Positions 8,432 to 9,157 of a DNA stretch of 29,835 nucleotides are shown here, in pieces (within the stretch, counting starts at the first letter, position 1; every line of letters begins with the position of its first letter). This DNA comes from Candidatus Woesearchaeota archaeon (lineage in GTDB: Archaea > Nanobdellota > Nanobdellia > Pacearchaeales > GW2011-AR1), in the NCBI GenBank assembly GCA_964353375.1, contig CAYGVK010000001.1, positions 315-30,149 on the forward strand, in the 5' to 3' direction. Both the position numbers and the translations under genes were made by a program. The notes beneath the pieces were generated by a model that had not been told where the DNA came from, ran no database searches, and saw only the letters and a program-made list of their open reading frames with translations.

Positions 8432-9157
8432 TTATCTTTCTTTATAAAATCTATGTTCCAAATAAGAAGGAGTGTTTGTTCTTTGCATTCCCCCTGCCCA
8501 TCTGGGATTTGCTTGTTTTGGATTAAAATAATGAGTTGCTCCATTTGTATTATCTTTATATTTTCCTGATAAAACTCCTCTTGCAACCTCTAAACATTGT
8601 TCAAAAGTTTCTGCTTCAGGATTCATTAATTTTGTTCTATTAACATCATTTCTATTAAAACATGAAAATTGGTGTGGTTGTAATAAAACTTCTTTTAAAT
8701 TATTTCCAAATCTTTTTTCTTTTAATCTATTTAAAGCAACATATGCAACAGCAATCTGTTCATTTTTAGATTCTCCTCTTGCTTCACCATAAACCATTCT
8801 TGCTAGTAAATATGTTTCATTTTCATTTTCAAGATTTCTTGTGCTGTAATTTCTATCATAAGCTTGATTTCCAGCTTGAGCATTTTGCACACTTGTTTCA
8901 ATATTAGAAGTTTGCAATGGTTTTTGTCTTTCTTGTCTATTTTGTACAGGATTAATAGTTTCTGCAAATTCTGTTCCTTGTTTGGTTCTTTCAGCTAAAT
9001 CTTCTACTTTTGAACTTGCTATATCATAAACACATAAACCTAAAGCAGATAAAACTACAGTTAAAGCTGTTTTTAATCCTGCATAACTTCTTCTTGTATT
9101 AGGAACTTTTCTTTGTCCTCTTAATACATTTTTTGGAGTATAATTTTTAACTACCAT
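8432..9157 (-). CDS. SleB/CwlJ-like cell-wall hydrolase (Hydrolase_2 family lytic transglycosylase) with N-terminal TM/signal segment
   Basis: LLARMVYGEARGES (catalytic Glu), VAYVALNR, QFSCFN and TNGATHYFNP; hydrophobic LTVVLSALGLCVY near the N-terminus. Confidence 0.9.
   Translation of the reverse strand: MVVKNYTPKNVLRGQRKVPNTRRSYAGLKTALTVVLSALGLCVYDIASSKVEDLAERTKQGTEFAETINPVQNRQERQKPLQTSNIETSVQNAQAGNQAYDRNYSTRNLENENETYLLARMVYGEARGESKNEQIAVAYVALNRLKEKRFGNNLKEVLLQPHQFSCFNRNDVNRTKLMNPEAETFEQCLEVARGVLSGKYKDNTNGATHYFNPKQANPRWAGGMQRTNTPSYLEHRFYKER

Follow-up and report, generated by a model that had tools for sequence, protein, structure and literature searches.

Murein hydrolases are already known from DPANN archaea. 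Large extracellular murein lytic-transglycosylase (SLT) proteins were described in the smallest Pacearchaeota and Woesearchaeota, for which bacterial hosts were suggested (Castelle 2021, PMC8204110), and 'vampiristic' Woesearchaeota with GH23 enzymes have been proposed (Vigneron 2022, PMC9723730). Modular archaeal peptidoglycan hydrolases, prominent in Nanoarchaeota, kill bacteria (Strock 2025, PMC12352652), and Pacearchaeota were suggested to feed on peptidoglycan (Kouduka 2024, PMC11537232). The notion that murein hydrolases of Pacearchaeota and Woesearchaeota are used on bacteria is thus already published. Such enzymes bear on whether any DPANN archaeon lives on bacteria; to our knowledge, cultivation together with a host has not been achieved for any Pacearchaeote or Woesearchaeote. 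A second group of described enzymes belongs to the SleB-like family. The Glu of the GExRGE motif is catalytic in SleB (PMC12331253) and in the SleB-like T6SS effector T6EC3, which is toxic to E. coli via the equivalent residue (PMC11148199); lytic-transglycosylase chemistry has been demonstrated for SleB itself only (PMC12331253). A Zymomonas SleB homologue remodels vegetative peptidoglycan (bioRxiv 10.64898/2026.07.21.739787). Our literature search found no paper naming SleB, CwlJ or PF07486/Hydrolase_2 together with DPANN.

The gene described here lies in a 29,835-nt stretch, which as a whole is called the window, of a 30-kb contig in an archaeal assembly of 605 kb (G000; 79 contigs, 79% complete, 0.3% contaminated). 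The gene and its immediate surroundings contain the following features.

8432..9157, minus strand: complete coding sequence (241 aa plus stop) for a predicted exported, single-domain Hydrolase_2 (SleB/CwlJ-type) putative murein hydrolase.
9077..9157, minus strand: basic N-terminal region, residues 1-27, with the weak twin-arginine-like motif TRRSYAGLK (sequence).
9020..9076, minus strand: hydrophobic segment, residues 28-46, a signal-peptide core or uncleaved membrane anchor (sequence, AF2).
8825..9019, minus strand: disordered Q/N/E/T-rich linker, residues 47-111, without a recognisable wall-binding domain (Pfam, AF2).
8435..8824, minus strand: catalytic domain, residues 112-241, pLDDT above 93, all family-conserved residues kept.
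8783..8785, minus strand: codon of Glu125, the first E of GEARGE and presumed catalytic glutamate (alignments).
9158..9252, no strand: 95-bp divergent intergenic region shared with ThrRS (sequence).
9253..10953, plus strand: ThrRS with the archaea-specific editing domain PF08915 (Pfam), a conserved syntenic anchor.

Pfam assigned residues 128-238 to Hydrolase_2 (PF07486, 'Cell Wall Hydrolase') with an E value of 7.4e-22 and a score of 78.3 bits against a cut-off of 27, the profile being covered at positions 1-100 of 100. In a PDB sequence search SleB was matched at E 7e-11, and the SleB entries 4FET and 4F55 were the only ones matched by sequence and profile searches. An AF2 model computed from a 58-sequence alignment consists of a long helix (residues 26-66), disorder to about residue 105 and a compact domain at 110-241 with pLDDT above 93. 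Foldseek with this domain returned chains of 4fet and 4f55 only, at probability 1.00, TM 0.70-0.82 (target-normalised) and 28-29% identity. Judged by these profiles and the model, the domain match is far beyond chance. The residues conserved in the family are all present (E125, R144, Q163, D202, GATHY 206-210, W220, H235 and F237). E125 is invariant in alignments of 58, 17 and 9 sequences and, when aligned with either SleB chain, falls on the first Glu of YGESRGE; we take it to be the counterpart of the SleB catalytic Glu numbered E151 or E157.

The earlier note had called the protein SleB-like, of which the family assignment stands and identity with SleB proper does not. The SleB equivalog model TIGR02869 gave 71.7 bits, far below its cut-off of 236.5, and a Pfam scan of the 241-aa protein yielded no domain besides Hydrolase_2 and no PG_binding_1. 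On both grounds the protein would be classed as SleB-like at the domain level only and not as a SleB orthologue. With no cell-wall-binding domain, substrate specificity would have to come from the catalytic domain alone. Since the catalytic domain alone was detected and no binding module, the protein also falls outside the modular definition (catalytic plus binding domain) of Strock 2025.

Relatives of the domain are also found in phages. It matched the PHROG endolysin families phrog_938 (1.1e-21) and phrog_15649 (9.5e-21) and shares 39% identity with a protein of Pseudomonas phage PAJU2 (ORF074) that is annotated as an endolysin. A total of 595 phage records match the domain, mostly from phages of Gram-negative hosts, 'endolysin' being a database annotation in these records; the matches to endolysins of Gram-negative phages indicate that the family acts on vegetative murein, beyond the spore cortex. 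By sequence family the protein belongs with the endolysins, but its setting is neither a viral genome nor a lysis cassette, as its neighbours are ThrRS and a pilin, and housekeeping genes occur throughout the window. The domain carries the insert QFSCFN...C, typical of a non-spore subgroup, in which C166 and C188 are conserved. The closest homologue is annotated by NCBI as a cell wall hydrolase.

A word-indexed search retrieved 118 homologues, the best being a 176-aa 'cell wall hydrolase [Candidatus Woesearchaeota archaeon]' with 55% identity. An exhaustive search gave 10,677 representatives at E <=1e-3 and 22 at E <=1e-30, none above about 54% identity; many of its best matches are 180-250 aa long and have an N-terminal extension. 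Scanning one genome per species with a five-sequence clade alignment yielded 42 loci, the best five all in MAGs of Woese-, Pace- or Nanoarchaeia. A maximum-likelihood tree built from 74 domain sequences placed the hydrolase in a clade that comprises 25 rows (22 DPANN), with UFboot 87 and SH-aLRT 79 in the careful tree and SH-aLRT 94 in a quick one. The phylogeny that the earlier note had called for thus recovered a mostly DPANN clade and, as judged from these domain sequences, groups the hydrolase within it with moderate support. Four other DPANN sequences were placed among bacteria in the same tree, pointing to more than one acquisition by DPANN. No bacterial donor can be named because the deep nodes lack resolution. 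A phage origin of the DPANN clade was considered and rejected, as three added phage sequences fell among bacterial groups and were not sister to the clade.

The single 'bacterial' member of the clade comes from a 7-kb contig labelled 'Candidatus Dojkabacteria' (L027, JAFCCB010000031.1), which carries a DPANN-clade hydrolase together with a ThrRS. Because this ThrRS is 73% identical to the archaeal ThrRS of the window, the contig almost certainly derives from a Pacearchaeote and was mis-binned into a CPR genome.

Matches to Hydrolase_2 or to the clade profile were obtained in about 10-15 of 400 high-quality genomes of the phylum and in about 5-6 of 27 of the same family, and the clade profile detected members in 5 of the 36 nearest same-family genomes. 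A Pfam-family search of the 60 nearest relatives found none with Hydrolase_2; the clade profile later matched three of them at E 1e-26 to 7e-41. Since the Pfam-based search missed clear members, these distribution figures are lower bounds, and absences from the genome profile search are soft because its prefilter misses diverged members. In the alignment several same-family copies are without GATHY, a loss indicating that the function is dispensable. The gene is old in the lineage and often lost or replaced, and its distribution is patchy and HGT-shaped, as for the murein hydrolases known in DPANN.

The hydrolase begins with MVVKNYTPKNVLRGQRKVPNTRRSYAG, a basic N-terminus that holds an RR pair and is followed by the hydrophobic segment 28-46. 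The linker behind it contains Q8, N8, E7, A6 and T6 among its 65 residues, at a pLDDT of about 50, and the GEARGE motif occupies residues 124-129. The N-terminal anchor (28-46), the Q/T/N-rich linker (47-111) and the intact GEARGE motif read from the DNA in the earlier note were therefore all recovered. An N-terminal signal, anchor, RR motif or lipobox-like Cys is present in nearly all 22 clade members; together with the hydrophobic segment, these signals across the clade agree with the proposed exported or anchored nature of the protein, which is predicted from sequence. Several clade members have clear RRxFLK-type motifs, and the RR motif of the window protein (TRRSYAGLK) is weak. Twin-arginine signals of the RRxFLK type were seen at the clade loci L022, L025, L026, L055, L090, L093, L087 and L106.

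Export by the Tat route was considered. TatC was found neither in G000 nor in five same-family genomes that are 70-91% complete, and these negatives are soft. Tat motifs without TatC would mean either that Tat is too diverged to be detected or that the motifs are leftovers from a bacterial donor that are now routed through Sec. With no TatC in searches of these six genomes, Sec is the probable route.

The earlier note had assigned the DNA to an archaeon, which is borne out by the adjoining ThrRS with its archaea-specific editing domain and by MetRS, L10e and PPDK encoded in the window on the same 30-kb contig. The synonymous codon use of the hydrolase is the most genome-typical among 438 ORFs of at least 150 aa. 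Its GC3 of 0.071 is the lowest among the same 438 ORFs (genome mean 0.169), a value that could stem from mutational bias where codon selection is weak, or from strong adaptation of codon use. GC3 of the hydrolase is also lower than in the ribosomal-protein, pilin and tRNA-synthetase genes of the window. On the minus strand, positions 9183-9191 read as a TATA-like element, TTTATAAAT, which precedes the hydrolase ATG by about 26-34 nt, a position that suggests a near-leaderless archaeal promoter; a second TATA-like element near 9222-9231 would serve ThrRS. A search for Mur ligase gave no match in the 79%-complete genome, in agreement with an organism that produces neither murein nor pseudomurein and with the earlier assumption of an archaeon without murein synthesis. 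A chimeric contig, which the same note had listed as a possible objection, can be set aside. The native codon usage and the synteny with ThrRS in at least 13 other DPANN genomes exclude a recent import or a chimeric join, and the gene is real, native and probably functional.

The arrangement with ThrRS deserves separate description. ThrRS is divergent to the hydrolase in the window and in those other DPANN genomes, as found by tblastn with the window's neighbouring proteins, and is a positional, not a functional, partner. On the far side of the hydrolase, ThrRS-linked genomes usually have no pilin; most often a gene of about 370 aa is found there, followed by a secreted protein of 650-700 aa. 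By its N-terminal sequence the ~370-aa gene reads like a tryptophanyl-tRNA synthetase. We inspected the gene upstream of ThrRS in 26 relatives. SleB-like, diverged genes with Tat-type signals occupy this slot in two genomes (G002 and G005), and another diverged SleB-like gene does so in a third (G015; hhalign probability 95%). One genome (G021) has an exported SLT lytic transglycosylase (E 2e-15) beside a polysaccharide deacetylase with a Tat signal (E 1.7e-22), and another (G008) has a Tat-signal protein with a weak, RlpA-like match to DPBB_1 'lytic transglycolase' (E 2.5e-5, below the cut-off). A tryptophanyl-tRNA-synthetase-like gene stands directly beside ThrRS in three genomes, and the slots of the remaining relatives hold unknown small proteins, often exported. 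The slot loci in these same-family genomes are as follows.

L087:2-1361, slot locus in a same-family genome.
L106:3986-4615, slot locus in a same-family genome.
L085:3485-4267, slot locus in a same-family genome.
L090 and L093, slot loci in same-family genomes.

Going by their family assignments, related genomes carry different predicted murein-active enzymes at one and the same chromosomal site. We tentatively raise the possibility that the slot upstream of ThrRS is a dedicated, fast-evolving one in which lineages exchange exported murein-active enzymes, tracking changes of bacterial partner or prey; the SleB-like gene of the window would then be one well-preserved cassette. This idea was not found in our literature search. 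In practical terms, the ThrRS-adjacent slot is a simple landmark by which equivalent enzymes may be located in further genomes. On the other side of ThrRS, the window contains at 11989-13861 on the minus strand a cluster of genes for a C39-like peptidase, a 90-aa peptide and a radical SAM/SPASM enzyme. This cluster looks like a RiPP operon and may supply another secreted product of the neighbourhood.

Family, fold, conserved active-site residues, clade-wide export signals, archaeal residency and conserved position are the observed properties of the gene. The reading we favour, and regard as rather probable, is a native, long-resident DPANN gene for a small exported Hydrolase_2 enzyme that cleaves murein glycan strands and acts on bacterial peptidoglycan. 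For its enzymatic activity, lytic-transglycosylase chemistry, bacterial target and biological purpose we infer the following course. The protein would be inserted or secreted via its N-terminal signal or anchor, probably by Sec, and the catalytic domain would then stay outside the cell, tethered by the flexible linker of about 65 residues, or be set free upon cleavage of the signal. Glu125 would serve as the single general acid in cleaving the MurNAc-GlcNAc bond of bacterial peptidoglycan. As the archaeon makes no murein and requires no immunity protein, the enzyme must find its substrate on other cells, presumably bacteria that the archaeon attaches to, competes with or feeds on. An enzyme aimed at bacteria, which the earlier note had put forward, is plausible and matches the published proposals. 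Against this reading, an enzyme that stays tethered to the membrane would still have to get at peptidoglycan beneath a bacterial outer membrane or across the archaeon's own surface layer; the gene is also patchily distributed, and a search for signs of its expression brought up no RNA run.

The alternative that survives best is scavenging, in which the enzyme would solubilise the peptidoglycan of dead bacteria in the sediment and supply amino sugars or peptides to an auxotrophic cell. The sample type (freshwater sediment), the tiny 605-kb genome and the proposal that Pacearchaeota feed on peptidoglycan (PMC11537232) all fit such a use, but a lone glycan-strand cutter frees little that can be taken up. 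Scavenging is further weakened by the lack of matches to AnmK, LdcA/Peptidase_S66, Amidase_2, M23 and NlpC/P60 in the 79%-complete genome, where these count as soft negatives, and we consider it unlikely. SLT also gave no match in G000, again a soft negative at this completeness.

The genes on the other side of the hydrolase suggested a different use. As the earlier note had described, the hydrolase is convergent with a pilin-like gene, which is part of a larger cluster.

1646-8354, plus strand: type IV-like pilus or adhesin cluster, a block syntenic with the same-family genome G297 (L081).
Starts at 1646, 2552, 2946, 3707, 6397 and 7914, plus strand: six class-III-signal-like proteins (N-termini).
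2061-2555, plus strand: P-loop kinase-like gene embedded in the pilus cluster.
3707-6205, plus strand: VWA-domain protein of 832 aa, class-III-signal-like, within the pilus cluster.
7914-8354, plus strand: pilin-like gene of 146 aa with a class III signal, convergent with the hydrolase (8432..9157, minus strand), 77 bp between the stop codons.

Among the genes of the window, none was recognised as encoding a pilus assembly ATPase or platform protein. The hydrolase, the adjacent pilus and the VWA adhesin could in principle form one contact-dependent device, in which the pilus would attach to a bacterium whose wall the enzyme would then breach. The enzyme does abut a cluster of six class-III-signal pilin genes with the 832-aa VWA protein, a tethered enzyme would need close cell contact, and the block of ThrRS, hydrolase, pilin, VWA protein and minor pilins recurs in one same-family genome, G297. 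The genomic comparison speaks against such a device. Being convergent, pilin and hydrolase are not co-transcribed, and they have separate promoters. Within 4 kb of the hydrolase, a regex and hydropathy scan of 20 other clade loci turned up no true pilin. Its four matches were all false positives, and it does recover the pilin-like genes of the window. At least 12 ThrRS-linked loci have on the far side the ~370-aa gene, tryptophanyl-tRNA-synthetase-like by its N-terminus, or another gene instead. The hydrolase-pilin adjacency is found in G297 only, where the hydrolase is strongly degenerate (GATHY lost, E125 kept) although the pilus genes are kept, and in G020 a pilin homologue lies directly beside ThrRS with no hydrolase between. 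Pilin-like genes are moreover common, about 21 in the 605-kb genome. We therefore see the pilus locus as a positional neighbour, coupling being without support beyond proximity. A joint device is improbable, and neither the suggested use of the enzyme with the pili nor synteny with them across relatives, both raised in the earlier note, was upheld.

A substrate other than bacterial murein, such as the pseudomurein of a methanogen host, chitin-like polymers or the cell's own surface glycans, is more doubtful still. It would accord with the identity of only 28-29% to SleB, the clade-specific insert with conserved C166 and C188 and the missing PG-binding module. Against it, the protein keeps all residues conserved across murein-active relatives, its nearest characterised or annotated relatives all act on murein, and the sister enzymes in the slot (SLT, polysaccharide deacetylase) are also of murein type; we judge it highly improbable. 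An artefact has a negligible chance, whether through mis-assembly or mis-binning of bacterial or phage DNA into an archaeal MAG or in the form of a relic gene in decay: Hydrolase_2 is an overwhelmingly bacterial and phage-borne family and MAG labels can err, as the 'Dojkabacteria' contig with its DPANN-clade hydrolase illustrates, but archaeal ThrRS, MetRS, L10e and PPDK share the 30-kb contig, codon use is native, an archaeal-type TATA element lies upstream, synteny is kept across many independent assemblies, the ORF is intact with every family-conserved residue, and the ThrRS of the mislabelled contig is archaeal-type, so that this mislabel runs the opposite way.

Under the favoured reading of an exported enzyme acting on bacterial peptidoglycan, the current picture of DPANN archaea is unchanged and one more enzyme family is added to it. 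Small, soluble and of a single domain, such an enzyme lends itself to experiments far more readily than the 3000-aa SLT proteins of the literature, and its activity spectrum across peptidoglycan chemotypes could narrow down the bacterial partners.

Among known systems, the spore cortex-lytic enzymes SleB and CwlJ of Bacillus share with the archaeal protein the catalytic domain family, the fold and the invariant Glu in the same YGExRGE motif, and 4FET and 4F55 are the only solved structures that match it. Unlike SleB, the archaeal protein has no N-terminal PG_binding_1 domain and no spore or YpeB context, and identity is limited to 28-29%. The closest named relatives are single-domain Hydrolase_2 proteins annotated as endolysins in phages with Gram-negative hosts (such as PAJU2 ORF074 and Stenotrophomonas phage Bhz51; PHROG 938 and 15649). 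They match the archaeal domain over its full length at 39% identity, fall in the same QFSCWN subgroup and have a domain of similar size. These phage proteins lack a signal or anchor and reside in lysis cassettes, whereas the archaeal one carries a 111-residue export and linker region and is encoded among housekeeping genes. T6EC3 offers a precedent for a SleB-fold enzyme as an antibacterial weapon (PMC11148199); unlike the archaeal enzyme, it is bacterial, delivered by a T6SS, paired with an immunity protein and recognised by structural rather than sequence homology. The murein hydrolases known from DPANN and other archaea (PMC8204110, PMC9723730, PMC12352652) come from the same lineages and follow the same logic, that of a murein-free archaeon exporting a murein-cleaving enzyme. 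Those enzymes are SLT, M23 and others, giant or modular, whereas the window protein is a small, single-domain Hydrolase_2 member without a wall-binding module.
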